Assembly: GCA_964404165.1 (NCBI GenBank)
Contig: CAYOIZ010000003.1
Coordinates: 116,940 to 180,939, forward strand
Direction: 5' to 3'
DNA: 64,000 bases
Source: an uncultured Candidatus Binatia bacterium
Lineage (GTDB): Bacteria; Desulfobacterota; Binatia; DP-6
Shown here: positions 39,914 to 55,366 of the stretch, in pieces
Numbering within the stretch: position 1 is the first letter of the stretch
How the letters are laid out: every line of letters begins with the position of its first letter
Made by a program: the position numbers and the translations under genes
The notes under the pieces: generated by a model
Told to the model about the DNA's origin: nothing
The model's input: only the letters and a program-made list of their open reading frames with translations
Database searches by the model: none

Positions 39914-42187
39914 ATGCCGAGGGCCGCGCGTCTCTTCGAGCTTTCCGTCACCATACTTTCCCTGCTTGCCGGCATCCTCCTCGGCCCGGGCGAGTCCAGT
40001 GCCCGCATCCAGTGGGATCGCGCCCTGCTCGGCTGCGAGCCCCCGGCGGTCTTCTACTCGAGCCGCCACGTCCCCGGAACGCGCCCGTGCTGTCCGTCGG
40101 TCGCGGGCGTCTGTGCCGGCGGCGTCACCTGTCCACCGAGCGGCGTGTGCGCCGGCGGCGGGGCCTGCACGCCGGGCGCGCCCGCAACGCGCCCGAACAT
40201 GGTGCTCATGATCTCGGACGACCAGGGCGCGTGCCAGTTCGGCAGCGCACAGGAATGTCGGAGCGCCGTGTCGGGCACCGCGATTCCCGCGCCGTCGACG
40301 CCCAACCTCGATCTGCTCGCCGGCTACGGCACCGTGTTTCCCGTGGCGCACAACACGTCGTCGTGGTGCTTTCCGTCCCTCTTCAGCATCGTCACCGGCC
40401 GCTACCAGCGCAGCATGGAGGGCGTCGCCAAACCCGCCGACACCTTCGGCTCCATCGCCCGCACGCTGCGCCGCCTGGACGGCACCCCCACGGACCCGTA
40501 TGACGCGCGTAACGGCGTCGGTGGCTACTGCACCTTCCTGAGCGGCAAGCTCACCGATCGGCTCGGCGATCCCGAGTTCCACGCCTATGCGCGCACCGGC
40601 AACCGGGCCATCGGCCGCACGCAGTGCATCGCGGGCGACCCCGGACAGCCACCCCGCTGCGGCAGCGAAGCCCAGAGCACCTACGAGCCGACGAAGATCT
40701 TCCGCGGTAGCGACATCTTCGAGTTCCTCGACACCCTCCTCTACCGCGTTCCCGAGGTCGAACCGGCGACGTTCACCTCGCTGCCGTTCTTCGTCTGGTA
40801 CGCGCCGCGCATCCCGCACCAGCCGCTGCGCTCCCCGAACGTCATCCGACAGTACCTTTTCGGCGGTGGTCCGACGTATCCACTCGGCGGCCTGTTCGAT
40901 CTCGGCGCCTTCTGCAGTGGGGCCAGCTGCCCGGCCGGCGTGCGCGCCTTCGACGAAGCCTCGTTCGGCGACGTGCACGAGCTCGATGGCAACCTCTGGT
41001 GGATGGACGACAGCGTGCGCGAGATCCGCAAGTACCTCGCGATGCAGTCCGCCCCGCACTGCATCACGAACGGCGGCAAGAGCCGCTTCGACGTGGCGAC
41101 ACCCGAGGCCTGCAACGGAACCTGGGCGGAGACCGTCACGCCCGACCTGTCGCGCAACACCATCTTCATGTTCCTCTCGGACAACGGCTGGCACCTCCCC
41201 GACTCGAAGCACTCCTTCACCGAGAACGGGACGCGCACGCGCATGATCGTGTTCGATCCACGGACGTTGCCACGAGTGCCGTCGTGGAACCCCCAGGCCG
41301 AGGTCACGCCGCCGCCACAGGAGAGCCCGGCACTGGCGCATTCGGTGGACATCTTCGCGACCACCGTCGGCTTCGCACTCGACTCGCCCGGGCCCGAGCC
41401 CTGTCCGCAGGCCGCGGACGGGAGCGGCCGGTGTGACGGACGCGACCTCCGCGCCCATCTCGTCACCGCGCCCGGAGGCCCGGCCGCACCCGAGACGCTG
41501 CGCCACGCGATGTGCGGGCATCAGACCCAACGCACGACGTCGCCGACGAAGAACCGCTACCTCATCACCCGCCCCGGCAGCGTCGGACGCTGCACCGATC
41601 TCGGCGCCGCAGCGTGTACCGCCGACGCCACCTGTGGCGCCAACGGCTTCTGTCTGGGCGGCCACTGCGCACCGCGCGCGGAGCCGGCCTGCACGACGAG
41701 CAGCACCTGCCCGTCCGGCGCCGTCTGTCTGGCTGGCCAGTGCCGCGCGGCGCCCGCCTGCCTCGAGGATGGCGATTGCGCGTCGCTCTTCCCGGGACGC
41801 AACACGGCCTGCGTGGCGAAGGATCGGAAGTGGTGCCGCAATTCGCCGGGGACGGCGTGCTCGGCGCACGCCGACTGTCCCCCCTGTGCACCGGGCGAGC
41901 CCGCGTGCTCGCGGCTCTGCGAAGCACGCCAGCTGAAGTTCTACGTCATCGCGGGCGCCAGGGACCTCCAGATGACCGACCTCTTCCTCGACCCCGACGA
42001 GAACGGGCTGCACAAGGGCGATCGGCGCTCGCTGACGTACGAGCTGTCGCGCCTCACGGGCCCGTATGGCTCGGCGATGCGACGCGCCAACTGCTGCATG
42101 GACGACTGGTGGCCGGAGGCCGGCAACCTCGGCACGGCCTGCACGGCCGGCTACGCCTGCCCGGCCGACCTGACCTGCAACCAGTAG
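39914..42187 (+). CDS. sulfatase-like (alkaline phosphatase superfamily) secreted protein with Cys-rich N- and C-terminal extensions
   Basis: Sulfatase N-terminal blocks (MVLMISDDQG; TPNLDLLAGYGTVFPVAHNTSSWCFPSLFSIVTGRY). The CxPxR signature is degenerate (CFPSL). Many Cys residues in the flanking regions. Confidence 0.65.
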   Translation: MPRAARLFELSVTILSLLAGILLGPGESSARIQWDRALLGCEPPAVFYSSRHVPGTRPCCPSVAGVCAGGVTCPPSGVCAGGGACTPGAPATRPNMVLMISDDQGACQFGSAQECRSAVSGTAIPAPSTPNLDLLAGYGTVFPVAHNTSSWCFPSLFSIVTGRYQRSMEGVAKPADTFGSIARTLRRLDGTPTDPYDARNGVGGYCTFLSGKLTDRLGDPEFHAYARTGNRAIGRTQCIAGDPGQPPRCGSEAQSTYEPTKIFRGSDIFEFLDTLLYRVPEVEPATFTSLPFFVWYAPRIPHQPLRSPNVIRQYLFGGGPTYPLGGLFDLGAFCSGASCPAGVRAFDEASFGDVHELDGNLWWMDDSVREIRKYLAMQSAPHCITNGGKSRFDVATPEACNGTWAETVTPDLSRNTIFMFLSDNGWHLPDSKHSFTENGTRTRMIVFDPRTLPRVPSWNPQAEVTPPPQESPALAHSVDIFATTVGFALDSPGPEPCPQAADGSGRCDGRDLRAHLVTAPGGPAAPETLRHAMCGHQTQRTTSPTKNRYLITRPGSVGRCTDLGAAACTADATCGANGFCLGGHCAPRAEPACTTSSTCPSGAVCLAGQCRAAPACLEDGDCASLFPGRNTACVAKDRKWCRNSPGTACSAHADCPPCAPGEPACSRLCEARQLKFYVIAGARDLQMTDLFLDPDENGLHKGDRRSLTYELSRLTGPYGSAMRRANCCMDDWWPEAGNLGTACTAGYACPADLTCNQ

Positions 42188-42188
42188 C

Positions 42189-43589
42189 TCAGCCGCCCTG
42201 CGGGGCGGGCTGCGGTGCGGCGAGCGGTGCCAGCACGGGCCGCCGTCGCATCAGCACGAGCACCGGAATCAGGATGGCGGCGGTGAGCTCGAGCCAGAAC
42301 AGCTCGAGGAACGCCAGCTCGTTGGCGGACGCCGCCGGCGTCCCCGTGGCGAGGAGACGTTCGGTGCGCACCTGCAGATACGCGTCGAGTCCCGCCACGC
42401 CGAGCGCGTAGCCGAGCTGCTGGCTCAGCACGAACAGGCCCGACGCCGCCCCCACCTGCTCCGGCGCGAGCGACCGGAACGCCATCGTCGCGAGCACGGC
42501 CGTCAGGATGCCGAAGCCGACGCTGCTCACCACCGCCGGCCAGATGGCCCCGAGCGGGGTCAGCCCCGGCGTGTAGAGGGTGAAGCCGAGCTTGCCCACG
42601 CCGAGCAGGAGCAGACCGGTGGCGAAGACCACGAACGGTCGCGTCCGGCCGAGCGCGGGGCCGGCGATCATCAGGCCGGCCATCAGCCCGACGCTTCCGA
42701 ACGCACCACGCACGCCGAGGAAGGTGGCGTCGAAGCCGAGGACGCTGCCCAGCATCGCCGGCTGGAAGAACGCGGTCGAGAACGCCCCGATGCCGAAACA
42801 CAGGACGGCCACCGTGGCGAGATCGCGACTCGCGAACGGACGCAGGTCGACGATGGGCCGCGGCGTCCGCCGCGCGTGCCGCGCGAAGACGCAGAGGCCG
42901 ATGAGGGCGACCACCGGCAGCACGAACACGCTCGGCGTCTTGTGCCAGTCGACGTTGTCTCCGATGTTGAGGAACACGCCGAGCGCCAGGATGCCGGTGC
43001 CGAACGTCGCGAGCCCCCACCAGTCGACGGCGACGGCGCGCGGCGAGCCCACCGGTGCTTCGCGGCGCACGAGCGGCAGCGTCACGATGCCGATCACGAT
43101 GGCCGGCGCGAAGATCCACGGCCAGGAGAAGCGCGTGCAGAGCCAGCCGCCGAGCAGCGCGCCGATCAACGCGCCCGCGGTGCCGCCCGCACCCCAGATC
43201 GCCATGCCCGTTCCACGTCGCGACCCCGTGAAGCGCGCGACGACGAGCGTCTGCGTCGCCGGCAGGAGGGGCGCCGCGAACAGGCCCAGCACGAAGAGCA
43301 GCCCGACGAGCGGCAGCAGCCCGCGCGCCATCGCCGCCAGGCCCGAGGCCACGATCGTGCCGGCGATGCAGGCGACCAGCAGCCGTCGCGGCCCGAAGCG
43401 CTCCATCAGGAACGCCGTCAGCGGCGTCGTGCACACGGTCGCGATCAGGTACGCGTCCGCGAGCCACATCACTTCCGCCGGCGACACGCCGAGCGCCACG
43501 CCGATGGCCGGCAGGGTCACGCCGACGGCCGCGATGTTCAGCGTCGTCAGCATGTTCACGAGCAGGATCAGTCCGACGGCAGGTCCCAT
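42189..43589 (-). CDS. MFS transporter, DHA2-like (14 TMS)
   Basis: Fourteen hydrophobic segments and MFS motifs. Its 5' end overlaps the upstream cytochrome gene by ~20 nt. Confidence 0.8.
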   Translation of the reverse strand: MGPAVGLILLVNMLTTLNIAAVGVTLPAIGVALGVSPAEVMWLADAYLIATVCTTPLTAFLMERFGPRRLLVACIAGTIVASGLAAMARGLLPLVGLLFVLGLFAAPLLPATQTLVVARFTGSRRGTGMAIWGAGGTAGALIGALLGGWLCTRFSWPWIFAPAIVIGIVTLPLVRREAPVGSPRAVAVDWWGLATFGTGILALGVFLNIGDNVDWHKTPSVFVLPVVALIGLCVFARHARRTPRPIVDLRPFASRDLATVAVLCFGIGAFSTAFFQPAMLGSVLGFDATFLGVRGAFGSVGLMAGLMIAGPALGRTRPFVVFATGLLLLGVGKLGFTLYTPGLTPLGAIWPAVVSSVGFGILTAVLATMAFRSLAPEQVGAASGLFVLSQQLGYALGVAGLDAYLQVRTERLLATGTPAASANELAFLELFWLELTAAILIPVLVLMRRRPVLAPLAAPQPAPQGG

Positions 43590-46126
43590 CGATTCCACCG
43601 GTTGCGGCCGCGGCCGCGGCGCTCGCGCGCATCGCTGGCGACCCGGAGCGTCCAACCCTCGGTCGGTTCGCCGTCGAGATCGAGGCGGCTCGCGATGTAG
43701 AAGAGGCGCTGCGTCTCCGGCCCCTGCGCCGTGACGAAGCGGTCGCGCAGGTAGTACGGCGGGATGGCCTGGTAGTGGACGACCGCGCGGACGCGCGCGG
43801 CACGACGGACGAAGCGCAGCGGGATCTGGTAGAGCACGTCGTCGGTGCCGCTGCCGTCGAAAAACGACGGGTCGCTGGTGCCGACCGGCTTGGTCTCCTC
43901 GGCGAACTGCTTCGTCACGGACCAGCCCATCGGTTCGAGACGGTTGTCCTTCACCTGCTGCTTCAGGGCGAGGAAGCTGGTGGTGAGATTGCCCTGGTCG
44001 TCGAGGTGACGATCCTCGAAGATCTGCACCTGGTTCTCGTCGGTGATGACGTCGTGATGCGGCTCCCACTCGGTGCGGCTGAACTCGGTCGGGAGCGGAT
44101 TGCCGTCGCGGTCGACGATGACGCCGAGCGGATTCGTCCGCCCCGAGCCCCACAGCACGCGGCCGCGACGATCCTCCACCACCACCTCGACGAAGGCGCG
44201 CCGGAAGCCGACGCCCGACGGGAAGCGATGCCCGGCCTTGTTCGTCACCCGGACCGCCACCTCGAGGTGCGCGGGCGTCCTGCCGCTGCGGCGCACGCGA
44301 CGGAGCGAGCGCAGCTCCACCGTCGCGGTCTCCTGCGTGGCGATGCGCGCGGCCTGATCCTGCGCCAGCAGCAGGCTCATCGCGGGGTTCTCGCTGGTGG
44401 CGATGTTGCCGTCGACCGGCGTCACGCCGAGCAGGTCCGAGAACTGCTGGAACATCTCCATGACGAAGAGGTTGATGCCCACCAGCAGGTGGCGCGCGTA
44501 GCCGTCACGCACCGGCAGCGTGACCTCGGCGTCGGGCGCGGCGTGCTCGAAGTACGGGTAGCGGTCGTCCTGGATGTTCGCGATGCGAAACGCGAGCGGC
44601 TGCGCGGGGTCGTCGAAGTGCCCGGGCATGTGGCAGTCCTGGCAACTCTTGAAGGTGCCGGGCTCGGAGAAGACGCTGTTCACCCACTCGAGGTAGGTGG
44701 TCTGCTCGTGCGCCGTCGGCGCCGACGCCATCTGCGCCGGCGTGTAGGGCTGGCCGACGTCGAGGATCGGCGTGAACACGGTGTGACACGAGCCGCACAG
44801 CGCCGAGTCGCCCATCTGGGTGCCGAGCGTCGGGGTCACACCCACCGCCTGCTGCATCGCGTACGGCAGCGGGTCGTCGTACTGGCCGTAGAGCTCGTCG
44901 GCCGGACCGAGGAGGAACTGGCCGGTGAACGTCGACGGATCGCCGAGCCCCTCGGCGGCGACGTGATGGCACGACGCGCACGACACGCCGTCGCGCGCGA
45001 GCGCGGCATAGGGCGCCATGGGATCGTCGCCGGTGGCGTAGGTGGCGGCGAGCGACATCAGACCGGTGCCGCCGGTGTCGAGCGCCAGCTGCCGCTTCCC
45101 CATGACGCCGTGGCAGGTCATGCAGAAGTTGTCGATCGAGTCGCCGAGCTCGGGGTGCAGCGCGCGCTCCGATTCGAGCTGGGCGCGGAACACCGGGTCG
45201 CGTCCGGCGAGCCCCATGAGCGACGCGCTCCACTCGCCGTAGGGCGACAGGTTCAGGTTCTGGCCGTCCACCTGGTGCATCATGTTCGGGTAGAGGCCGT
45301 GCAGCAGCGAGTCGGCGTCGTGGCAGCCGCCGCAGACGTCGGAGGTGACGAACGGCTTCCGCTCCGCACCCGGCACCGGCACGACGTGATCGTTGCTCTG
45401 GGACGGCAGCGGCAGCGCCGTCGCCGGCGGCACGATCTCGGAGAAGAGCGCCACGAACGACGGATCGGGCACCGGCAGCGGATCCGGCAGGTTCACCGGG
45501 ACGTAGGGCGGCACGTGCGGTCCCGGCGGCGGCATGGCGCCGTTCGGGCCGGTGTCGATGTCGCCGTACGTGACGATCGGGCCCGTGACGTTCGAGATGC
45601 TCGCGAACAGGAGGTGCTCGTTGTCGGCGGCGGCGTGGCACGCCACGCAGTACGGCAGGAACGTCTCACCCGAGTCGTAGGACGGATCGTGCGCGTCCAC
45701 GTAGGCCCAGTACCAGCCGTCGCGCGACGCGCTGCCGTCGCGGAGCATGATCGTCCAGCCTCCGAGCGCGGTCGGATCGGTGGAGCCGGGACCGTCGTAC
45801 TGCTCCTTCACGACGACGGTGCCGTCGGGGAACGACTGGCCGGGCGGGCGCCCGTCCATCAGCCACTGGAAGACGTCGGGCGGATAGTGCACGCGGACGT
45901 CGCCGTGCACCGAGAAGTACGTGCCGTCGACGATGGGGCCGGTGGCGCGGACGCGCAGATCGGCCATCCAGCCCGCTTCCTCGTAGCAGCGGCTCTCGAG
46001 GAACGGCCGCAGGGCCTCGGTCGAGGGCGCGAGCGGCGTGGCGCAGTCGTAGGCGTTCGCCCCGACCACCGGCGCACTCACGAGCAGCAGCCAGGTCAGG
46101 ATTCCGACACTCCGGGTGGTAGGCAT
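43568..46126 (-). CDS. secreted multiheme c-type cytochrome with N-terminal cytochrome P460-like domain (6 CxxCH)
   Basis: Signal peptide. The P460 family block aligns with N. europaea CytL (FPDGTVVVKE...GWYWAYVD...YCVACHAA). Five further CxxCH motifs follow (CGGCH, CMTCH, CASCH, CGSCH, CQDCH). Confidence 0.75.
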   Translation of the reverse strand: MPTTRSVGILTWLLLVSAPVVGANAYDCATPLAPSTEALRPFLESRCYEEAGWMADLRVRATGPIVDGTYFSVHGDVRVHYPPDVFQWLMDGRPPGQSFPDGTVVVKEQYDGPGSTDPTALGGWTIMLRDGSASRDGWYWAYVDAHDPSYDSGETFLPYCVACHAAADNEHLLFASISNVTGPIVTYGDIDTGPNGAMPPPGPHVPPYVPVNLPDPLPVPDPSFVALFSEIVPPATALPLPSQSNDHVVPVPGAERKPFVTSDVCGGCHDADSLLHGLYPNMMHQVDGQNLNLSPYGEWSASLMGLAGRDPVFRAQLESERALHPELGDSIDNFCMTCHGVMGKRQLALDTGGTGLMSLAATYATGDDPMAPYAALARDGVSCASCHHVAAEGLGDPSTFTGQFLLGPADELYGQYDDPLPYAMQQAVGVTPTLGTQMGDSALCGSCHTVFTPILDVGQPYTPAQMASAPTAHEQTTYLEWVNSVFSEPGTFKSCQDCHMPGHFDDPAQPLAFRIANIQDDRYPYFEHAAPDAEVTLPVRDGYARHLLVGINLFVMEMFQQFSDLLGVTPVDGNIATSENPAMSLLLAQDQAARIATQETATVELRSLRRVRRSGRTPAHLEVAVRVTNKAGHRFPSGVGFRRAFVEVVVEDRRGRVLWGSGRTNPLGVIVDRDGNPLPTEFSRTEWEPHHDVITDENQVQIFEDRHLDDQGNLTTSFLALKQQVKDNRLEPMGWSVTKQFAEETKPVGTSDPSFFDGSGTDDVLYQIPLRFVRRAARVRAVVHYQAIPPYYLRDRFVTAQGPETQRLFYIASRLDLDGEPTEGWTLRVASDARERRGRGRNRWNRWDLPSD

Positions 46127-46169
46127 CCCGGAGCATGTATCGGTCGACCCGGCGCCGACCTTGATGCGG

Positions 46170-46535
46170 TCAGACGAAGGTGCGCAGAGCCCACCATCCG
46201 AGCAGCGCCACCACGGCACCGATGCGGACGGTGTCGGAACGTACCGGCCGGACAGCGGCGGGCAGGAACGCCGCGCCCACCGCCCACAGCGCCACCGGCA
46301 GACCGAAGGGATGCTGGCGCAGCGACGCGCCGACGTGGCCCTCCGCCAGCAGGGCCAGCGATCGCGTCATGCCGCAGCCGGGGCAGTCGTGGCCGGTGAG
46401 CGCATGCACGGGACAGAGCGCGGGCAGCCGCGGCAGCACGGCGGCGACGTCCCACGCCCCGAGCGCGTGGCCGGCGGCGGCGACGCCGAAGACGGCCACG
46501 CCGGCGCGGAGCAGGCTACGCGTCGAACCAGGCAT
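46170..46535 (-). CDS. DUF2752 domain-containing membrane protein
   Basis: CPxxxLTGxDCPGCGMTR motif. Confidence 0.75.
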   Translation of the reverse strand: MPGSTRSLLRAGVAVFGVAAAGHALGAWDVAAVLPRLPALCPVHALTGHDCPGCGMTRSLALLAEGHVGASLRQHPFGLPVALWAVGAAFLPAAVRPVRSDTVRIGAVVALLGWWALRTFV

Positions 46536-46896
46536 TGATCTCGCTCTGCTGGATGGCGTCGGCAACGAGCACGAGGCCGAACACCGAGAGCAGGAGGCTG
46601 ATCAGCGCCAGGTTCTCGTTCGGCGGCCGCCCGACGCGCGTGTTCACCTCGGTGATGACGAGGCCCATCCGGTACTGCGTGTACACGTGGTAGATGCCGC
46701 ACGTGATCAGCGTCAGGAGGAACCACGTCCAGAAGCGGAACTCCTCCTTGCCGATGAAGGCGTTGAGCGCCCGGAACTGCCGCGCCTGCCAGAAGAGGTT
46801 GTAGATGCCGCAGGTGACGATCGACAGGATGATGTCCGTGGGGATGCTGCTGGCCGCATCCTCACGCGCGATCGGGTACGTCCGTGTGTCCGCCAT
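46516..46896 (-). CDS. DUF4234 domain-containing membrane protein
   Basis: Duplicated TCGIYxxxW motifs in TM segments. Overlaps the DUF2752 gene start by 20 nt. Confidence 0.7.
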   Translation of the reverse strand: MADTRTYPIAREDAASSIPTDIILSIVTCGIYNLFWQARQFRALNAFIGKEEFRFWTWFLLTLITCGIYHVYTQYRMGLVITEVNTRVGRPPNENLALISLLLSVFGLVLVADAIQQSEINAWFDA

Positions 46897-46935
46897 CCGG
46901 CTTTCTAACCCAGATGACGACGGCGTCCAAATCGT

Positions 46936-47127
46936 TCAGTCGCGCAGCGACAGGGCCTGACGGGGGCAGCGGCGCACCGCCAGCTCCACCTTCGGGCGCT
47001 GCGCGTCGTCGATGGACTCGACCAGCACGCGCGCGAGGTCGTCGTCCCCGACGACGAACACCTCGGGGGCGACGTTCATGCACACGGCGTTGCCTTCGCA
47101 GAGAGCGGTATCGACGACGACTCGCAT
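46936..47127 (-). CDS. ferredoxin (P450-associated, single cluster)
   Basis: 64-aa product (MRVVVDTALCEGNAVCMNVAPEVFVV...) typical of Fdx partners of bacterial P450s. Confidence 0.75.
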   Translation of the reverse strand: MRVVVDTALCEGNAVCMNVAPEVFVVGDDDLARVLVESIDDAQRPKVELAVRRCPRQALSLRD

Positions 47128-47215
47128 GGCCTCATCTGCAGCGAGCGACGGCCGCCCGTCAAGCCGAGCGCGTCGGCTTGACAGCCCGAAGCGGCGCACC
47201 CTATGGCCACGGGCG

Positions 47216-48403
47216 ATGGCCGACGCCCCGCCGCCCATGAACTTTCTCGACGTCGACTTCTACATCTCCGACCCGTACGACGCGTACGCCTGGCTCCGGC
47301 ACCACGCCCCGGTGTGGTGGGACCCGGCCAACGGCTTCTGGGTGGTGACGCGCCACGAGGACGTCGCCTTCATCTCGACCCACTCCGACCTGTTCTGCTC
47401 GAGCCAGGGCTACCGGCCGAACGTCGGTCCCGACCCGTCGCTGATCTCGCTCGACCCCCCGCGCCACACGGCGCTGCGTCGCCTCATCAACAAGGGGTTC
47501 ACGCCGCGCATGGTGTCGCAGCTCGAGCCGCACGTGCGCGACATCGTACGCCGCACGCTCGACGGCGTCGGCCCGCAGGGCGCCTGCGACTTCGTGGAAG
47601 ACATCGCCATGCCGCTGCCGATGCTCGTCATCGCCGAGCTGCTGGGCTACCCGCAGGAGGACTGGCAGCGCCTGCAGCACTGGTCCGACGAGATGAACAT
47701 CGGCGACGCCAGCCACCCGCTCGACAAGGTGATCGAGGCGTACCAGGCGTTCTGCGCCTACCACGAGCCGATCGCGGCGGCGAAGGCCGAGCGGCCCGGC
47801 GACGACCTGCTCTCGAAGCTGATCCATGGCGAGATGGCGGGCGAGAAGCTCGACGCCGACGACGTGCTGCGCACGGCGCTGCTGCTGCTCGTCGGCGGCA
47901 ACGAGACGACGCGCAACACCGTCGCCGGCGCGATGCTGGCGCTGATGCAGCACCCCGAGCAGCGCGACCGCCTGGTCGCCGACCCGGACGGTCTGCCGGT
48001 GGCCATCGAGGAGTTCCTGCGCTGGGTGACGCCCATCATGAACTTCCGCCGCACGGCGACGCGCGACCTCGAGCTGCGCGGCACCGCCATCCACGAGGGC
48101 GACCAGGTGGTGATGATCCACGGCTCGGCCAACCGTGACGAGGCCGTGTTCGCCGACGCCGACCGGTTCGACGTCGGCCGCGACCCGAACCCGCACCTCG
48201 CGTTCGGCGTCGGCACGCACTTCTGCCTCGGCGCCAACCTGGCCCGCCTCGAGATCCGCGTCATGTTCGAGGAGCTGCTGCGCCGCTTCCCCGACATGCG
48301 ACTCGCCCCCGGCGGCGAGGTCCGTCGCTACCCGTCCACGTTCATCCGCGGCTGGTCGTCGATGCCCGTGGAGTTCACGCCCGAGAGGAGCACCAATGGC
48401 TGA
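47216..48403 (+). CDS. cytochrome P450
   Basis: Heme-binding loop (FGVGTHFCLGANLAR), an EXXR motif (EEFLRW) and the I-helix (GGNETT). Confidence 0.9.
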   Translation: MADAPPPMNFLDVDFYISDPYDAYAWLRHHAPVWWDPANGFWVVTRHEDVAFISTHSDLFCSSQGYRPNVGPDPSLISLDPPRHTALRRLINKGFTPRMVSQLEPHVRDIVRRTLDGVGPQGACDFVEDIAMPLPMLVIAELLGYPQEDWQRLQHWSDEMNIGDASHPLDKVIEAYQAFCAYHEPIAAAKAERPGDDLLSKLIHGEMAGEKLDADDVLRTALLLLVGGNETTRNTVAGAMLALMQHPEQRDRLVADPDGLPVAIEEFLRWVTPIMNFRRTATRDLELRGTAIHEGDQVVMIHGSANRDEAVFADADRFDVGRDPNPHLAFGVGTHFCLGANLARLEIRVMFEELLRRFPDMRLAPGGEVRRYPSTFIRGWSSMPVEFTPERSTNG

Positions 48404-49175
48404 TCTGACGGGCCGTGTGGCCCTGGTGACCGGTGGCGGCAGCGGCATCGGCTTCGGCTGCGCGCGCGCGATGGCCGACGCGGGCGCCCGCGTCGCCCTC
48501 ATGGGCCGCGACCCGCAGCGGCTCGAGCATGCGGTCACGCTGCTCGGCGCCGAGCGCGCCATCGCCGTCCCCGGCGACGTCGCCATCGAGGACGACGTCG
48601 CGCACGCGGTCGGCCATACCGTCGAGCGACTCGGCCGTCTCGACATCGGCGTCAACGCGGCCGGCACCGGCTCGCTGGCCCCCGTCCACGAGCACAGCGC
48701 CGAGGAGTGGACACGCGTCATGCGCATCAACCTCGACGGCGCCTTCTTCTCGGTGAAGCACCAGGCCGCCGCCATGATCGCCGCCGGCCACGGCGGCGCC
48801 ATCGTCAACATCTCCTCGATCGCCGGCATCCTCACGCACCGCCTGATGAGCGCCTACTGCGTCTCCAAGGCCGGCCTCGAGATGCTCACCAAGTGCGCCG
48901 CCGACGAGCTCGGCGAGCACCGCGTGCGCGTCAACGCGATCCGCCCGGGGTTGGTCCCGACGGATCTCGCAACGCCGCTCACGAGCAGCCCGAAGGTCGT
49001 CGAGAACTACAAGTCGCTGATGCCGATCCAGCGCCTCGGCACGGTCGAAGACATCGCCGCCGCCGCCCTGTTCCTGGTGAGCGACGACGCCGGCTGGGTG
49101 ACCGGCCAGGTCCTGTCGGTCGACGGCGGCCACACGCTCCGCGCGGGTCCGGACGTCACACTGATGTTCAGCTAA
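48396..49175 (+). CDS. SDR family oxidoreductase
   Basis: Cofactor-binding TGGGSGIG, catalytic YxxxK (YCVSK) and NISS motifs. The ATG overlaps the P450 stop. Confidence 0.9.
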   Translation: MADLTGRVALVTGGGSGIGFGCARAMADAGARVALMGRDPQRLEHAVTLLGAERAIAVPGDVAIEDDVAHAVGHTVERLGRLDIGVNAAGTGSLAPVHEHSAEEWTRVMRINLDGAFFSVKHQAAAMIAAGHGGAIVNISSIAGILTHRLMSAYCVSKAGLEMLTKCAADELGEHRVRVNAIRPGLVPTDLATPLTSSPKVVENYKSLMPIQRLGTVEDIAAAALFLVSDDAGWVTGQVLSVDGGHTLRAGPDVTLMFS

Positions 49176-49230
49176 CCCCTCTCGACGGAGGGGACCGCAG
49201 CCGCGCCCCGCCTCCGCCCGCCGCCGCTGC

Positions 49231-49259
49231 TTGACCCGAGTGAAACATCTGTTTTAAAC
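49231..49259 (+). promoter_or_regulatory. candidate sigma70-like promoter with embedded palindromic operator (AAACA-TC-TGTTT) upstream of tetR-efflux operon
   Basis: TTGACC at 49231 (-35), then a 17-nt spacer, then TTAAAC (-10). The 5-2-5 inverted repeat at 49243-49254 overlaps the spacer and -10. The tetR GTG is at 49268. Confidence 0.35.
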
Positions 49260-49267
49260 GTCCGTTC

Positions 49268-49948
49268 GTGACGTCGACCACCACCCGCGACCCGGCCGCC
49301 ACGCGCCGGCGTCTCCTCACCGCCGCCGCGCGCTGCTTCGCCGATCACGGGTTCCACGGCACCACCATCCGCGAGATCGCCGAGCGCGCAGGAGTGAACG
49401 TCGCCGCCGGCAACTACCACTTCGGCTCCAAGAAGGACCTCTATCTCGAGGTCCTGCGCGGCGAGTTCGATCGGGCGAAGGCGGCACTCGCCGCCAGCGG
49501 CGCCTCGCCGTCCGCCGCCGAGCTCGCCGGCCTCGACCGCGACGCGGTCGTCGGCCTCCTCGTCGCCCGCGCGCGGGTCATGCTGGAGACGCTGGTCGCT
49601 CCGCCCGGGTTGCACGGCCGACTGATGCAGCGCGAGATGACCGACCCCAGCGAGGCGCTCCCCACCATCGTCGACGAGTTCATCAAGCCGTGGACGGAGG
49701 AGCTGAAGGCCATCGTCGCGCGCCTGCAACCCGGGCTCGATGACGCCACGCTCGAGCGGTGCGCCATGAGCATCGTCGGCCAGGTGATGTTCTACCGTGC
49801 CGCGATGCCGATCGTGCTGCGCATCTGGAAGCGCCGCCAGTACCCGGCCGACGTGCTCGACGACCTCGCCGCACACATCGCCACCTTCTCCGTCGGCGGG
49901 CTCGCCGAGGTGGCTCAAGGCCCGCGGAGGGTGTCGCGTGCGCGCTGA
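49268..49948 (+). CDS. TetR/AcrR family transcriptional regulator
   Basis: TetR_N HTH (TIREIAERAGVNVAAGNYHFGSKKDLY). GTG start. Confidence 0.85.
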   Translation: MTSTTTRDPAATRRRLLTAAARCFADHGFHGTTIREIAERAGVNVAAGNYHFGSKKDLYLEVLRGEFDRAKAALAASGASPSAAELAGLDRDAVVGLLVARARVMLETLVAPPGLHGRLMQREMTDPSEALPTIVDEFIKPWTEELKAIVARLQPGLDDATLERCAMSIVGQVMFYRAAMPIVLRIWKRRQYPADVLDDLAAHIATFSVGGLAEVAQGPRRVSRAR

Positions 49949-51389
49949 TCGCTGGCTCCTGCTGCTGCCGCTGCTCGCCGCCTGCGGACCGATGGCCGTG
50001 ATGACGCGGCCCGAGGGCAACGGCGGCTGGACGGCGGACCAACGACGCGAAGAGCTCGGCAAGCGCGCCGCGGCGGCGGGCGTCGATCTCGCCGCCACGG
50101 CGCCCGCGCTGCCGGCCGATCGTCCGCTGTCGCTGTCGGAGGCCATCGCCCTCGCCGCGGGCGGTAACCGGCGCATCGCCGAGGCCGAGCGCATGCTCGG
50201 CGAGGCCGGCGCGCGTGTGCGCCTGTCGCGCGGCCGCCTGCTGCCGAACGTCACCGGTGAGGGCCGCTACACCTGGTACACCGATCCGCTCTCGAACCAG
50301 GTCGACTTCCCGCCGGGCGTCCTGCCCGCCGGCATCCAGCCCCCCATCGTCATCATCCGCGAGGCGGAGTCGGGACGGGTGAATGGCACCGTCCGGGTGC
50401 CGCTCGACGTCACCGGCGAGCTGTGGAATGGCCTCACCGCCGCCCAGGCAGGGTACCGCGGCGAGCGCGCCCGGGTGTGGGCGACGACGCTCGCCGAGCA
50501 GGTCGCCGTGATCCGCGCCTACTTCGAGCTCCTCGAGGCGCAGCGGCTGCGCGTCGTCACCACCGAGCGCATCGCCGTGCAGCGCACCCAGCTCACCAAC
50601 GCGCAGAATCGCTTCGACGCCGGCCGGCTCACCAAGAACGAGCTGCTGGTCGTACAGGTGGCGCTGCGCGACAGCGAGCAGGGGCTCCGCCGTCGCGATC
50701 TCGCCATCGCCGAGGCGCGCTGGACGCTGAACCAGCTCGTCGGCCGTCCCGTCGACGCCCCCACCGAGGTCGTCGACGTCGCCACGCCGCCGGTGGTGCC
50801 CAGCACCGACGACGCCCTTCGCGACGCCTTCGCCAACAATCCGCTCCTGCTCTCGCTCGCCGAGGAGCAGCAGCGGCTCGACGACACCGCGACCTCGCTC
50901 GAGCGCGGGCGCCTGCCGCGCTTCAACGCCGGCGGGGCCATCGACTGGACGTCGGAGAAGATCATCACGCCGCAGCGTGTGGGTGCGGGGTTCGTGGGCT
51001 TCACCTGGGACATCGGCACCGACGGCCAGCGCGAGGCCCGCATCGCCGAGGCGCGCATCGCCGCCGACCGCAATCGGATCGCCGTCGAGCGCGAGCTGCG
51101 CAGCCTCGAAGGCGGCGTGCGCGCCACCCAGCAGGCCACCGAGGAGCGCCTGGCGGCGCTCGAGTCGGCGGGCGAGGCGGTGTCGCAGGCCGAGGAGAAC
51201 CTCCGCATCCGCCAGCAGCAGTTCGACGCCGGACGTGCCACCAGCGAGGACGTGCTCGACGCCGAGGCGCTGCTGACGCGGCAACGCGCCGACCTCGCCA
51301 CCGCCCTCTACCAGGCGCACACCCGCCGCGCCGAGTTGCAACAGCTGATGGGCCTGCCGCTCGACGGCCTGGCCGCCGCCACGAGGTGA
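49938..51389 (+). CDS. TolC family outer membrane efflux protein (lipoprotein)
   Basis: Lipobox (LLAAC) and two OEP repeats. GTG start with a GGAGG RBS. Overlaps the tetR stop. Confidence 0.8.
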   Translation: MRADRWLLLLPLLAACGPMAVMTRPEGNGGWTADQRREELGKRAAAAGVDLAATAPALPADRPLSLSEAIALAAGGNRRIAEAERMLGEAGARVRLSRGRLLPNVTGEGRYTWYTDPLSNQVDFPPGVLPAGIQPPIVIIREAESGRVNGTVRVPLDVTGELWNGLTAAQAGYRGERARVWATTLAEQVAVIRAYFELLEAQRLRVVTTERIAVQRTQLTNAQNRFDAGRLTKNELLVVQVALRDSEQGLRRRDLAIAEARWTLNQLVGRPVDAPTEVVDVATPPVVPSTDDALRDAFANNPLLLSLAEEQQRLDDTATSLERGRLPRFNAGGAIDWTSEKIITPQRVGAGFVGFTWDIGTDGQREARIAEARIAADRNRIAVERELRSLEGGVRATQQATEERLAALESAGEAVSQAEENLRIRQQQFDAGRATSEDVLDAEALLTRQRADLATALYQAHTRRAELQQLMGLPLDGLAAATR

Positions 51390-51394
51390 ACGGA

Positions 51395-52414
51395 ATGCCG
51401 AAGCGGATCGTGATCGTCGTCGTCGTGCTGGCCGTCCTCGTGGGCGCGCTGTGGTGGAGCCGGCGCGACACCGGACCGTCGCACTTCACCGGCTTCGTCG
51501 AGGGCGAGGAGCGGGTGGTGCGCAGCGAGGTCACCGGCCGCGTGCTCGACGTGCCCTTCCACGAAGGCGACGCGGTGCCCGCGGGCGCCGTCCTCGCCCG
51601 TCTCGACGACGCCGACGTCGCCGCCAAGGTGGCCTCGAAGCAGGCCGAGGTGGCGATGATCGACGCCCAGATCACGCGCCAGGACGAGCAGATCGCCCTC
51701 ACCGAGGCCACCTGGGCGCGCGATCGCAGCGCGCGCGCCGCCGAGCTGCGACGGACCGAGGCCACCGCCGCCCTCGCCGAACGCACGCTCGCCCGCGAGC
51801 AGGAGCTGGTGCGCTCCGGTGCCAGCACCGCACAGACCCTCGACGACCAGCGCGCGCTCCGCGACCAGTCGCAGAGCGACCTGCAGCGTGCCCGCGAGCT
51901 GCTCGGCCGCGCCGACGCCGAGGAGCGCTCCATCGCCCTTGCCCGCCAGCAGCGCGAAGTGCTCGTGCAGCAGCGCGCCATGGCCGCGGGGCAGCTCGCC
52001 GAGCTGCAGGTGACGCAGGGGAAGTTCACCATCACGGCCCCCGCCGTCGGCACCGTGGTGCAGAGCCAGCTCATCTGGCCGGGCGAGCTGGCGCAGCCGG
52101 GCACGCCGATCGTGTCGGTACTGGATCCCACCGACAAGTACGTTCAGGTCTACGTCCCGGTGCCCGACGTCGGCCGCTTCAGCCTCGGGCGGCCGGTGGA
52201 GATCGAGCTCGACAGCGAGCCGGGCCGGCGCTTCAAGGGCGAGGTGAGCTTCGTCGCCAACGGCGCGAACTTCACGCCCGAGAAGATCGAGACGCGCAGC
52301 GATCGTCTCGGCCAGGTCTATCGCGCCAAGGTGCGCATCCTGGAGGACGTCGCGCGCTTCCAGCCCGGCACCGAGGGCAACGTGTTCCTGGTCGGGGAGG
52401 AGCCGCGGGGGTGA
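51395..52414 (+). CDS. HlyD family membrane fusion protein
   Basis: N-terminal TM segment, coiled-coil and biotinyl/lipoyl-like beta domains. YbhG-like. Confidence 0.85.
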   Translation: MPKRIVIVVVVLAVLVGALWWSRRDTGPSHFTGFVEGEERVVRSEVTGRVLDVPFHEGDAVPAGAVLARLDDADVAAKVASKQAEVAMIDAQITRQDEQIALTEATWARDRSARAAELRRTEATAALAERTLAREQELVRSGASTAQTLDDQRALRDQSQSDLQRARELLGRADAEERSIALARQQREVLVQQRAMAAGQLAELQVTQGKFTITAPAVGTVVQSQLIWPGELAQPGTPIVSVLDPTDKYVQVYVPVPDVGRFSLGRPVEIELDSEPGRRFKGEVSFVANGANFTPEKIETRSDRLGQVYRAKVRILEDVARFQPGTEGNVFLVGEEPRG

Positions 52415-53340
52415 GCCAGCCGCTCGTCGAGCTGCGCGACCTGCGCAAGCGCTTCGGTCGCACGACGGCGCTCGCCGACATCGACCTCACCATCGACGAG
52501 CGCCAGATCGTCGGCGTGGTCGGACCCGACGGCGCCGGCAAGACCACGCTGCTGCGCGCGCTCGCCGGGCTCCTCGAGGTCGAGGCCACCACCGCCCGCG
52601 TGCTCGGCCACGACCTCACCCGCGACGTCACGGCGCTCAAGGACCGCATGGGCTACGTGCCGCAGGTCTTCAGCCTGCATCGCGACCTCACCGTCGGCGA
52701 GAACCTGCGCTTCACCGCCCGACTGCATCGCATCCCGCCCGACGAGGGCTGGGCCCGGGCCGAGGAGCTGCTGCGTCGCATCGCCATGGACCGCTTCGCC
52801 GATCGGCTCGCCGGCGCGCTGTCCGGCGGCATGAAGCAGAAGCTCGCGATCGCCAACGCGCTGCTCCCCCGTCCCGACCTGATCGTGCTCGACGAGCCGA
52901 CCGCCGGCGTCGACGTGGTGGCGCGCGGCGAGATTTGGGACCTGCTGGTCGAGGCGCAGCGCGACGCGCTCGTCGTGCAGAGCACGAGCTACCTCGACGA
53001 GGCGGAGCGCTGCGACCTGCTCGTGTACCTCGACGATGGTCGCGTCGTCGCCGCCGGCACGCCCGACGAGCTGCGCGCGTCCGTGCCCGTCGAGCTGTAC
53101 CGCGTGTGGGGCACCGATGCCCGGGCGGTCGCGGGGGCCGCGCGCCGTCTGCCCTACGTCGCCGGGGCACGCGCCACCGGCACCTACGCCCGCATCGAGG
53201 TGGCCTCGGCACGTTCGCCGGGGACCTCGTCGGTGCTTCGCGACCTCGGCGCGCTCTCGACCGACGGCGCCCACCTCGCAGAGCGGGTCCCCGTCGACAT
53301 GGAGACCACACTGCTCTCGCTCGCCGGGGGGCTCACGTGA
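52411..53340 (+). CDS. ABC transporter ATP-binding protein
   Basis: Walker A (GPDGAGKTT), signature motif (LSGGMKQK) and Walker B (LIVLDEPTAGVD). GTGA overlap with the upstream gene. Confidence 0.9.
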   Translation: MSQPLVELRDLRKRFGRTTALADIDLTIDERQIVGVVGPDGAGKTTLLRALAGLLEVEATTARVLGHDLTRDVTALKDRMGYVPQVFSLHRDLTVGENLRFTARLHRIPPDEGWARAEELLRRIAMDRFADRLAGALSGGMKQKLAIANALLPRPDLIVLDEPTAGVDVVARGEIWDLLVEAQRDALVVQSTSYLDEAERCDLLVYLDDGRVVAAGTPDELRASVPVELYRVWGTDARAVAGAARRLPYVAGARATGTYARIEVASARSPGTSSVLRDLGALSTDGAHLAERVPVDMETTLLSLAGGLT

Positions 53341-54263
53341 GCGAGCCCATCATCCGCACCCGCGGGCTCACGAAGCGCTTCGGCGATTTCACCGCGGTCG
53401 ATCAACTCGACATCACCGTCCAGCCGGGCAGCATCTTCGCCTTCCTCGGCGGCAACGGCTCGGGCAAGAGCACCACGATCCGCATGCTGATCGGCCTGCT
53501 GCAGCCCACCGACGGCGAGATCACCGTCGACGGCGTCGACGTCATCCGCTTCCCGCGCCGCGTGCGCGACCACATCGGCTACATGGGCCAGAAGGTGAGC
53601 CTCTACCAGGGGCTGTCGCTGCGCGAGAACGTCGAGTTCTACGCCGGGCTGTTCGGCATGGGCGGCGACGCGCTGGAGCACCGCTGGAGCGAGCTGCGGG
53701 AGCGCTTCGCGCTCGGCGAGGCCGAGGCCGAGCGGCCCGAGAATCTACCGGCCGGCGTGCGCCAGCGCGCCGGGCTGGCGCTCAGCATGCTGCATTCGCC
53801 GCGCGTCCTCTTCCTCGACGAGCCCACCGCCGGCGTCGACGTCGCCAGCCGCACGCTCTTCTGGGAGGCCATCCAGGACGCGGCCGCCGCCGGCGTCACC
53901 GTGTTCGTCACCACGCACTTCCTCGAAGAGGTCGACTACTGCCACTGGGTGACGTTCATCGAGGCGGGGAAGATCGTCGCCGACGCCACCCCCGAGGCGC
54001 TGCGCACGCGCTACTCCGACGGCTATCGCGTGACGATCGCCGTCGACGCGGGACGGCGCGACGCCGTGCGCGCGCGACTGGGCGGCCTCGCCGACAGCGC
54101 CCAGCCCTCGGCCGCGGGACTCGTCCTGACACTGCCGCGCCTCGAGCCAGCGGCGCTGGCCGTCCTCGACGGGCTCCCGAAGGACGTCGAGGTGCGGGTC
54201 GAGCAGGCCCCCATGACCGAGGTGTTCCGTCGCGTGCTGCTCGGCCAGGCGGTGGCGGCATGA
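53337..54263 (+). CDS. ABC transporter ATP-binding protein (second NBD)
   Basis: Walker A (GGNGSGKST) and Walker B (LFLDEPTAGVD). GTGA overlap with the upstream gene. Confidence 0.9.
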   Translation: MSEPIIRTRGLTKRFGDFTAVDQLDITVQPGSIFAFLGGNGSGKSTTIRMLIGLLQPTDGEITVDGVDVIRFPRRVRDHIGYMGQKVSLYQGLSLRENVEFYAGLFGMGGDALEHRWSELRERFALGEAEAERPENLPAGVRQRAGLALSMLHSPRVLFLDEPTAGVDVASRTLFWEAIQDAAAAGVTVFVTTHFLEEVDYCHWVTFIEAGKIVADATPEALRTRYSDGYRVTIAVDAGRRDAVRARLGGLADSAQPSAAGLVLTLPRLEPAALAVLDGLPKDVEVRVEQAPMTEVFRRVLLGQAVAA

Positions 54264-55366
54264 GCCTCCGGCGGCTGCGCACGCTCATCGTGCGCGAGAT
54301 CCGCGCCACCTTCCGCGACGTCTTCACCATGTCGATCCTGGTGGCGACACCGCTCGGCGCGATGCTGATCTTCAGCTTCGTGCTCTCGACCGACGTCATG
54401 GGCCTGCGGCTCGCGATCCTCGACGGCGACGGCTCGGCCGAGAGCCGCCAGCTGGTCGCCGACGTCGCGGCGGGCGGGTCGTTCATTCCCCAACCCGTCG
54501 ATTCGCGCGAGGAGATCGCCGACGGCATGCGATCGGGCGAGGTGGGCGCCGCGCTCATCATCCCGCCCGGATTCGGTCGGGCCGTGCAGGAGGGCCGTGC
54601 GCCCGAGGTGCAGGCCATCTACGACGGCGCCGAGGCGGTGCTCGCAGGCAACGCCGAAGGCGCGCTCGGCGGGCTCCTGGCCGCGACCGGCGCGCGGCTC
54701 CGCGGCGGCGGACCGCCGCCCCCGCGGGGCGTGGCGGTCGCGACGCAGGTCCTGTTCAATCCCCGCCTCGACGGCACGCCGTTCATGGTGAGCGGCACGT
54801 TCGGCTTCGTGCTCTCCTTCCTCACCACGCTCATCACGGCGGTCACCATCGTCAACGAGCGGCAGGCCGGCACGTTCGACCAGCTGCAGGTGACGCCGGC
54901 GACGTCGCTCGAGATCCTGCTCGGCAAGCTGCTGCCCCTGGGCTTCGTGTTCTCGATCGACGTCGTGCTCATGGTGGTCCTCGCCGGCACCGTTCTCGGC
55001 GTGTGGCCGCACGGCAGCGTCGTGTTCTTCCTCGTGGTGTCGGCCTTCTACGTCATGGTGTCGCTGTCGCTCGGCCTGATCTTCTCCGCCACGTCGCAGA
55101 CCGCCGCCGAGGCGGTGCAGAAGACGGTGCTGTTCAGCGTGCCGCTGGTGCAGCTGAGCGGGTTCGCCTTCCCGATCCGCAACATGCCGACGGGTCTGCA
55201 GTGGGTCGCCGAGATGTTCCCGGCTACGCACTACATCCGCGTCACGCGCGCCATCTACCTGCGTGGCGAGGGGCCGCTCGATCTCGCACCGGAGCTGCTC
55301 GTGCTCTTCCTCTTCGCCGCGGCGCTGGTGGTCATGGCGTTGCGCACGCTCGAGCAGCGCGCATGA
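54260..55366 (+). CDS. ABC-2 type transporter permease
   Basis: Six TM segments and the ABC-2 family pattern. ATGA overlap with the upstream gene. Confidence 0.85.
   Translation: MSLRRLRTLIVREIRATFRDVFTMSILVATPLGAMLIFSFVLSTDVMGLRLAILDGDGSAESRQLVADVAAGGSFIPQPVDSREEIADGMRSGEVGAALIIPPGFGRAVQEGRAPEVQAIYDGAEAVLAGNAEGALGGLLAATGARLRGGGPPPPRGVAVATQVLFNPRLDGTPFMVSGTFGFVLSFLTTLITAVTIVNERQAGTFDQLQVTPATSLEILLGKLLPLGFVFSIDVVLMVVLAGTVLGVWPHGSVVFFLVVSAFYVMVSLSLGLIFSATSQTAAEAVQKTVLFSVPLVQLSGFAFPIRNMPTGLQWVAEMFPATHYIRVTRAIYLRGEGPLDLAPELLVLFLFAAALVVMALRTLEQRA

Follow-up and report, generated by a model that had tools for sequence, protein, structure and literature searches.

The locus described here raises the question of what a P460-type heme does when it is built into a multiheme protein, and whether the genes packed around it belong to the same system. 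Cytochrome P460 is the hydroxylamine-oxidising type of cytochrome in nitrifiers and a direct route from hydroxylamine to N2O; it also serves as the small-protein model of what, to our knowledge, is the sole biological reaction that oxidises a substrate bound to heme. In a family that keeps the P460 lysine and has five more hemes, the coupling of a P460 site to an electron-transfer chain could be studied in a natural system, and P460 chemistry would reach into the dominant phyla of soil. In the window, i.e. the whole stretch of 64,000 nucleotides analysed, a sequence-only reading had proposed that DUF4234, DUF2752, such a cytochrome and an MFS transporter form one module of N-oxide/hydroxylamine detoxification or respiration. 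The features concerned are listed below.

46936..47127, minus strand: single-cluster ferredoxin, 63 aa (Pfam Fer4_15, E 3.2e-12)
46516..46896, minus strand: DUF4234 small membrane protein, 126 aa (Pfam PF14018, E 1.2e-17)
46170..46535, minus strand: DUF2752 small membrane protein, 121 aa from the ATG at 46535 (Pfam PF10825, E 4.7e-17)
43568..46126, minus strand: hexaheme cytochrome gene, 852 aa plus stop, from ATG; from N to C, signal peptide, P460 domain, Pro-rich linker, pentaheme domain and beta-sandwich
46052..46126, minus strand: Sec signal peptide, residues 1-25 (MPTTRSVGILTWLLLVSAPVVGANA), read from the sequence
45569..46045, minus strand: P460/c'-beta-fold domain, residues ~28-186
45806..45808, minus strand: codon of Lys107, the predicted heme cross-link lysine, by alignment with McP460 Lys78
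45635..45649, minus strand: CVACH, heme motif of the P460 domain, residues 160-164, from the translation
45377..45568, minus strand: Pro-rich linker of variable length, residues ~187-250
44327..45376, minus strand: pentaheme domain, residues ~251-600, with CxxCH at 265, 335, 383, 444 and 495
43571..44326, minus strand: beta-sandwich (Ig-like) C-terminal region, residues ~601-852
44213..44233, minus strand: invariant loop G632-H633-R-F-P636-S637-G638 within the Ig-like region (coordinates checked)
42189..43589, minus strand: DHA2/EmrB-type MFS efflux permease, 466 aa (MFS_1, E 2.3e-43; TIGR00711, E 9e-47)

As had been read before, the cytochrome is a secreted protein of 852 aa with one CxxCH in the P460 domain and five more, the motifs starting at residues 160, 265, 335, 383, 444 and 495. 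Sec-type cleavage is predicted between MPTTRSVGILTWLLLVSAPVVGANA and YD, and residues 1-25 have a pLDDT below 50 in the structure model. The protein is a member of a large, uncharacterised family, with more than 2,500 matches, at least 591 species genomes and at least 588 clusters at 50% identity (E<=1e-30), mostly from Acidobacteriota, also from Chloroflexota, Binatia and Proteobacteria, and found mainly in soil bacteria. No published description of the P460-pentaheme architecture was found in literature searches, which agrees with its having been called undescribed, but it is anything but a one-off. In 126 of 150 diverse representatives (50% clustering) the N-terminal domain and exactly six CxxCH motifs are kept, all motifs being invariant; selection thus acts on the fusion as a whole. 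The flexible linker itself has no position conserved at 95% or more, residues 188-210 have a pLDDT below 50, and the distance from the first CxxCH to the second varies between 74 and 283 residues in the family representatives. A rare variant (P0275) has no P460 domain and carries its own signal peptide.

The N-terminal domain matches Pfam PF16694 with 33.5 bits (E 6.5e-8), above the curated cut-off of 27, and its profile matches McP460 at E 1.4e-7; it has the beta-sheet-rich P460/c'-beta fold with a single C-terminal CxxCH. The block-for-block alignment with P460 claimed earlier holds by sequence for the C-terminal two thirds, and for the N-terminal third at the level of fold only. The block FPDGTVVVKE with its lysine at the cross-link position is indeed present (DGTVVVKEQY is translated from 45797-45826), and this Lys107 aligns with the lysine in 'WPDGAILVKLSW' of 6HIU, residue 78 in the alignment's chain numbering, which is the cross-link lysine of McP460; in cytochrome c'-beta the aligned position is occupied by Phe. 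Lysine is found here in all 120 close relatives and in 117 of 127 diverse sequences, while Ala replaces it in 7 of 126 representatives, which counts against the explanation preferred below. The CVACH motif is invariant in the family. Judged from the alignments, the domain is a real P460-family domain with one c-heme and a conserved lysine where characterised P460s have their porphyrin cross-link.

The rest of the predicted pocket is non-canonical, with Lys107 accompanied by Arg/Lys78, by His74, and by Thr/Ala in place of the usual carboxylate. In an alignment anchored on the shared M-V-K-D motif, Asp102 of McP460 falls on Thr125, and none of 127 sequences has an acidic residue, Asp or Glu, there (T 55, A 41, S 8, V 8, L 4). 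NH2OH-oxidising P460s require a precisely placed distal carboxylate, Glu96 in NeP460 and Asp102 in McP460, and the P460 of Nitrosomonas sp. AL212, with Ala at this position, is inactive (PMC11928373). For this reason, hydroxylamine oxidation cannot be simply assumed for the hexaheme family. His74 and Asp136 are near-invariant and specific to the family. Some metagenomic surveys score any PF16694 match as 'hydroxylamine oxidation to N2O' (e.g. PMC9938248); their counts would take in the hexaheme family, even though the residue known to be needed for that reaction is missing from its pocket.

The pentaheme and beta-sandwich part is homologous to the cytochrome c552 (LPC) of T. tepidum and more distantly to MccSep. 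The LPC layout, in which a helical domain with five CxxCH hemes precedes an Ig-like beta-sandwich, is found here with a similar overall fold, and residues 601-830 are modelled with a pLDDT of 86-97 in every 10-residue block but one. The loop of the Ig-like region aligns with 'PHAMPTG' of 5ZE8 and its His633 is conserved in 100% of the family sequences. Positions conserved at 95% or more number 40 in the heme region, 20 in the C-terminal region and 10 in the P460 domain, and both the pentaheme and the beta-sandwich regions contain many invariant charged residues. The NCBIfam model NF040886 (MccSep/ExtKL) matches residues 361-501 only, with 37.8 bits (E 8e-10) against a cut-off of 250. The module had been described as an electron wire; the five further, covalently joined c-type hemes agree with that, but the module is homologous to an enzyme, MccSep being the sole characterised member of the pentaheme and Ig-like group (PMC13510729).

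As to the neighbouring genes, the order DUF4234, DUF2752, cytochrome, MFS on the minus strand had been given correctly. Of the 20-nt overlaps reported at both ends, the one between DUF4234 and DUF2752 (ATG at 46535) has this length, whereas the cytochrome and MFS genes overlap by 22 nt; the DUF2752-to-cytochrome gap is 43 nt. The ferredoxin gene is the first of the cytochrome's minus-strand run and is divergent from a P450 gene, an arrangement repeated in loci L085 and L086. Such tight same-strand packing speaks for a common module, as does the DUF pair being kept beside the cytochrome in close Binatia relatives (95% and 79% identity). However, it adjoins the cytochrome in these relatives only: among 84 family loci the pair is present in one (L005, 79% identity, Binatia), the MFS gene in one other (L001, 73% identity), and both together in none. 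Distant members, in loci from Rhodovibrionaceae, Dehalococcoidia and in P0057, have unrelated neighbours, DUF4234-DUF2752 pairs occur without the cytochrome (L087, L089), and in L085/L086 the pair is intact although the cytochrome gene there is out of frame and lacks the part for residues ~187-755. The MFS protein, moreover, is a drug-efflux permease by type. The survey thus largely refutes the four-gene module, which we consider very improbable: DUF4234, DUF2752 and MFS are lineage-specific neighbours and not parts of the system, and a false lead is thereby removed. No conserved partner gene of the family was found in the 84 loci, which come from many phyla, and this fits a self-sufficient soluble enzyme.

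The explanation that we prefer, though tentatively, is that the protein works by itself in the periplasm, as a hexaheme oxidoreductase whose catalytic heme, of the P460 type, is wired to the five others, and that it probably acts on NH2OH or NO. The signal peptide counts for a periplasmic enzyme. The module contains six conserved candidate distal ligands (His546, His633, Met282, Met304, Met424 and Met500), enough for six-coordination of all five of its hemes, so that the P460 heme would be the sole open, substrate-binding site. This heme would act on a small nitrogen compound, hydroxylamine and/or nitric oxide being the likeliest, and would exchange electrons, in either direction, with general periplasmic carriers by way of the five other hemes; the protein would then be an analogue of hydroxylamine oxidoreductase (HAO) with wiring of its own. 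The heme-lysine cross-link defines P460s and goes with NH2OH oxidation (PMC11928373), while among HAOs those with a cross-link are oxidative and those without it reductive (PMC12758564); the oxidative direction is therefore favoured. With the linker predicted to be disordered, electron transfer between the P460 domain and the pentaheme part is putative, a point against this explanation. A bolder version, in which a lysine-cross-linked P460 heme in a non-canonical, His-containing pocket oxidises hydroxylamine or NO and passes electrons along the five hemes to the respiratory chain as a convergent, self-wired 'mini-HAO', we regard as unlikely. If true, abundant non-nitrifying soil Acidobacteriota, Chloroflexota, Binatia and others would consume NH2OH/NO leaked by nitrifiers by an unrecognised route, gaining energy from it and possibly emitting NO or N2O.

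The active site could also lie in the pentaheme/beta-sandwich part, since its conservation equals that of the P460 domain and its only characterised relative is catalytic (PMC13510729). In MccSep the site consists of heme 2 and of Sec325, which projects into it from the Ig-like domain (PMC13510729); by analogy, a module heme facing the GH633xFPSG loop would bind the substrate, and the P460-type domain would be an accessory, either a heme by which electrons enter or leave or an NO-/gas-binding regulatory or protective domain like cytochrome c'-beta. The invariant His633 loop aligned to that of 5ZE8, the 40 and 20 highly conserved positions, many of them charged, the P460 pocket without its catalytic carboxylate and the rare P460-less variant all argue for this possibility. 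On the other hand, the heme-ligating Cys and the catalytic Sec/Cys of the Ig-like domain that define MccSep (PMC13510729) have no counterpart in the hexaheme family, whose GHxFPSG loop carries His633 instead and whose alignment contains no Cys conserved at 90% or more outside the CxxCH motifs. The conserved His and Met could saturate all module hemes, an accessory heme would need no lysine conserved at 93% or more across phyla (gas-binding c'-beta is without it; PMC11928373), and LPC c552 itself is described as a protein of unknown function. On balance we find catalysis in the module somewhat unlikely.

A non-catalytic periplasmic carrier or store of electrons, i.e. a shuttle whose six hemes carry out no substrate chemistry, would agree with the lack of a conserved partner or operon in the 84 loci, with LPC c552 being a soluble cytochrome to which no enzymatic role has been assigned and with the missing carboxylate. 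Such a role seems improbable to us for a protein of 852 aa, whose large, highly conserved beta-sandwich and many invariant polar residues are far more elaborate than known shuttles, and the conservation of the P460 lysine is hard to explain by simple electron transfer.

Among known systems, the P460s (CytL of N. europaea, 2JE3; M. capsulatus, 6HIU; Nitrosomonas sp. AL212, 6AMG) and cytochromes c'-beta (6HIH, 8BRK, 7S5O) used for comparison are stand-alone proteins of 135-196 residues in the deposited chains, whereas in the hexaheme protein the domain makes up the N-terminal sixth of 852 aa. Instead of the distal carboxylate the family has Thr/Ala, in which it resembles the inactive AL212 protein, and the near-invariant His74 and Asp136 are the family's own. 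The sequences analysed in the P460 review are proteobacterial (PMC11928373), while the hexaheme family is mainly from Acidobacteriota, Chloroflexota and Binatia. LPC, the pentaheme low-potential c552 of Thermochromatium tepidum (PDB 5ZE8), has ~385 residues and no P460 domain; the hexaheme module, of ~600 residues, differs from it by other heme spacing and extra elements at 22% identity. MccSep (ExtKL, GSU2937-2936), the multiheme selenoprotein polysulfide reductase of Geobacter sulfurreducens (PMC13510729), is also periplasmic, with a pentaheme cap and an Ig-like stem, and its model matches at residues 361-501. It has no P460 domain, however, and its His/Cys-ligated heme and Sec/Cys are absent from the hexaheme protein; with this and the sub-threshold score, membership in MccSep/ExtKL was rejected. 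MccSep is found in anaerobes of Desulfobacterota and Nitrospirota, the hexaheme family in mostly aerobic soil lineages. With HAO/NrfA-type multiheme enzymes the catalytic parts share no homology. In HAO, Tyr is cross-linked to heme 4 within an octaheme core; this core is absent here, so membership in the octaheme HAOs was rejected as well, and the predicted cross-link is by Lys, in a separate beta-sheet domain held on a linker. The resemblance to HAO would thus be one of convergence, not of membership.

The cytochrome joins two known modules in a combination that is widespread yet undescribed, and its P460 pocket departs from the canonical one. The translated protein begins with a Sec signal peptide, which is followed by six CxxCH motifs with first residues 160, 265, 335, 383, 444 and 495; here, as for the gene order, the sequence-only reading was accurate. 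The N-terminal domain is of the P460 type, as had been proposed, and sequence and fold evidence are concordant on this point. The domain scores 33.5 bits against the Pfam model PF16694 (cut-off 27), and the family profile matches Methylococcus capsulatus P460 (McP460) and cytochrome c'-beta. When the profile was restricted to the N-terminal domain, E-values of 1.4e-7 for McP460, 5e-6 for c'-beta and 0.02 for the AL212 P460 were obtained. Profiles were required for this, as the matches from single-sequence phmmer searches of PDB were all weak or at chance level.

In HMM alignments Lys107 (within FPDGTVVVKE) stands opposite Lys78 of McP460 ('WPDGAILVKLSW'), while cytochrome c'-beta differs from the cytochrome in having Phe at the aligned position. 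Lysine occupies position 107 in all 120 relatives and in 117 of 127 sequences (the query and 126 representatives clustered at 50% identity), which confirms conservation of the proposed cross-link position. Among these 126 diverse six-heme representatives Ala is found in seven, Val in one and gaps in two; unless this is an alignment artefact, the Ala-bearing proteins would be a c'-beta-like subgroup inside the fused family.

According to the 2025 superfamily review, P460s are defined by the heme-Lys cross-link, and NH2OH oxidation requires a precisely placed distal carboxylate, Glu96 in Nitrosomonas europaea P460 (NeP460) and Asp102 in McP460; the Ala-bearing P460 of Nitrosomonas sp. AL212 is inactive (PMC11928373). 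The McP460 stretch Asp102-Phe-Met-Val-Lys-Asp aligns with Thr125-Ile-Met-Leu-Arg-Asp of the cytochrome, and position 125 is Thr, Ala, Ser, Val or Leu, with Asp or Glu in none of the 127 sequences. Since the lysine is kept and the carboxylate position is never acidic, the family would belong with the P460s that the review terms 'halfway house', having the Lys cross-link (here predicted) and no polar pocket (PMC11928373). Two near-invariant residues, His74 (98%) and Asp136, are peculiar to the family, and Arg/Lys78 may lie close to where McP460 has its capping Arg, as judged from spacing and not from a tool alignment. All three are candidate replacements for the distal carboxylate.

The database searches show that the architecture is not a rarity. 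The nearest relative (95% identity) is named 'cytochrome P460 family protein [Candidatus Binatia bacterium]', and source annotations of family proteins read either 'hypothetical protein' or 'cytochrome P460 family protein'. A word-indexed search returned 2,537 matches, the best 120 of which are 747-930 aa long save for one 468-aa fragment. When 1.84 billion representatives were searched exhaustively, 588 clusters passed E<=1e-30 and 1,358 passed E<=1e-10. The N-terminal domain together with exactly six CxxCH motifs was present in 126 of the 150 best representatives; those with fewer hemes are mostly contig-end fragments, the likely real exceptions being P0275 and P0286. At least 591 stretches were matched in the species-representative genome collection. 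The majority of the 80 loci kept are from Acidobacteriota (Pyrinomonadaceae, Blastocatellia, Acidobacteriaceae, Thermoanaerobaculia, Bryobacteraceae), and the other carriers belong to Chloroflexota, Binatia, Burkholderiales, Alphaproteobacteria, Bacteroidota, Ignavibacteria, Kapaibacteria, Nitrospinia, Planctomycetota and Deinococcaceae. One carrier without a MAG label is Acidobacteriaceae bacterium KBS 83 (L065). Literature searches for a P460 fusion, a multiheme P460 or the P460 domain architecture brought up no description of this protein type.

In the window (G+C ~70%) the cytochrome gene is a member of a tight run on the minus strand, surrounded by the following genes.

Genes around the cytochrome gene in the window
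39914-42187, plus strand: secreted sulfatase-domain protein, 757 aa, its long C-terminal region rich in Cys; convergent with the MFS gene
42189-43589, minus strand: MFS permease, DHA2/EmrB-type
43568-46126, minus strand: cytochrome, 852 aa
46170-46535, minus strand: DUF2752 protein, ATG at 46535
46516-46896, minus strand: DUF4234 protein
46936-47127, minus strand: ferredoxin, 63 aa; member of the tight run
47219-56500, plus strand: cytochrome P450, then SDR, CecR-like TetR regulator, outer-membrane efflux protein, two ABC ATPases and two ABC-2 permeases; transcribed away from the ferredoxin gene

The DUF4234 and DUF2752 genes overlap by 20 nt and the cytochrome and MFS genes by 22 nt, with 43 nt between DUF2752 and the cytochrome gene. 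Scanning of 41900-47500 predicted no promoter and a single terminator-like site, located within the cytochrome gene, which corresponds to chance level. The P450 and the genes following it form a YbhGFSR-like efflux cluster.

This arrangement had been taken for an operon, which as a conserved unit did not survive a survey of 84 family loci (flanks of up to 6 kb) by tblastn of the three neighbour proteins. DUF4234 and DUF2752 were found together only at L005 (Binatia, 79% identity) and the MFS gene only at L001 (73% identity); in Rhodovibrionaceae, Dehalococcoidia and the distant relative P0057 the cytochrome gene lies amid unrelated genes. To guard against missed divergent small proteins all flanking ORFs were clustered and recurrent clusters annotated, and no conserved partner gene emerged from the 84 loci. 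With one exception, recurrent flanking families are generic: S9 peptidase, Ser/Thr kinase, sigma-54 activator, SDR and ABC transporters. The exception is a POPDC/cNMP-binding protein of ~220 aa, encoded at 16 of the 84 loci, on either side of the cytochrome gene and no more than ~1.5 kb from it (L004 10025-10693, L011 8610-9278 and 14 others). No Crp-type HTH domain was detected in it, and it does not qualify as a DNA-binding regulator of the Crp type; the POPDC loci examined are all from Pyrinomonadaceae or close relatives, and the proximity may reflect lineage synteny or a regulatory link.

Conversely, DUF4234-DUF2752 pairs overlapping by a few bases occur without the cytochrome at L087 (228-1085) and L089 (4338-5089), and they look like an independent small membrane-protein module. 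At L088 (4252-5366), with no cytochrome nearby, DUF2752 is preceded by two CD225-family genes instead of DUF4234. Two Binatia-like metagenome contigs, L085 and L086, share the synteny of the window (P450, ferredoxin, DUF4234, DUF2752) with intact DUF genes, while in the cytochrome gene (L085 5432-6231; L086 5423-6230) residues ~187-755 are deleted and the P460 domain (residues 26-186) runs out of frame into ~756-850, with an extra frameshift in L086. What L085 retains looks like an intact secreted P460 domain of 183 aa; it is a natural 'stand-alone' derivative or else a pseudogene. On both contigs the efflux cluster is kept up to the contig ends, and in L085 a homologue of the sulfatase-domain protein adjoins the truncated cytochrome directly. 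From these neighbourhoods, co-conservation of the cytochrome with the DUF genes is limited to a narrow Binatia subclade, which essentially refutes the proposed link by the yardstick that the sequence-only reading had set. That reading is upheld in part: the P460 and five-heme fusion stands, and the family is neither a rarity nor an operon-encoded system.

The extension also has known relatives. Residues ~251-835 match Thermochromatium tepidum cytochrome c552 (5ZE8, pentaheme with Ig-like domain) by profile (E 5.6e-13) and by Foldseek (E 1.1e-11). NCBIfam ExtKL matches residues 361-501 with E 8e-10, far under its cut-off. ExtKL is MccSep, a periplasmic polysulfide reductase whose active site combines heme 2 (His/Cys-ligated) with a selenocysteine contributed by the Ig-like domain (PMC13510729); PtdA, a related pentaheme and beta-sandwich protein, is encoded in a porin-cytochrome cluster (bioRxiv 10.1101/2023.11.21.568154). 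P0275 (758 aa) and P0286 (612 aa), rare module relatives with an N-terminal signal-like sequence, five CxxCH and no P460 domain, indicate that the module can occur alone. Assignment of the cytochrome to hydroxylamine oxidoreductase (HAO), which has an octaheme core with a Tyr-cross-linked heme 4, was also considered and was rejected.

Our preferred, still tentative reading is a stand-alone periplasmic hexaheme oxidoreductase, in which a small nitrogen species (NH2OH and/or NO) would be bound at the P460-type heme and electrons would be relayed by the other five. Oxidation is the favoured direction, given the association of cross-linked P460 cofactors with oxidative reactions. The missing carboxylate and the predicted disorder of the linker (residues 188-210) keep the substrate assignment tentative; the spacing between the first and second heme motifs ranges from 74 to 283 residues. 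A pure electron-carrier role, with which the non-acidic pocket could agree and which does not readily account for the retained Lys107, appears improbable. A four-gene N-oxide or hydroxylamine module has the compact gene run of the window on its side and the 84 surveyed loci against it, and we give it hardly any credence.

The main rival, rather unlikely in our estimate, places catalysis in the pentaheme/Ig-like module by analogy with MccSep. Kinship with 5ZE8 and MccSep places the electron 'wire' in a module family with a capacity for catalysis of its own. Conservation in the heme and C-terminal regions equals that of the P460 domain, and near-invariant positions are more numerous there. Membership of the cytochrome in MccSep was rejected, given the low ExtKL score and the MccSep Cys and Sec, which have no counterpart here. 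Conserved candidate axial ligands are Met282, Met304, Met424 and Met500 of the pentaheme domain (95-98% conserved) and the only two conserved non-motif histidines, His546 and His633, the latter within an invariant GHxFPSG loop aligned with 'PHAMPTG' of 5ZE8. Four conserved Met against just two such His suggest that several module hemes are His/Met-ligated and hence of higher potential, in which the module would differ from MccSep, for which bis-His hemes have been described.
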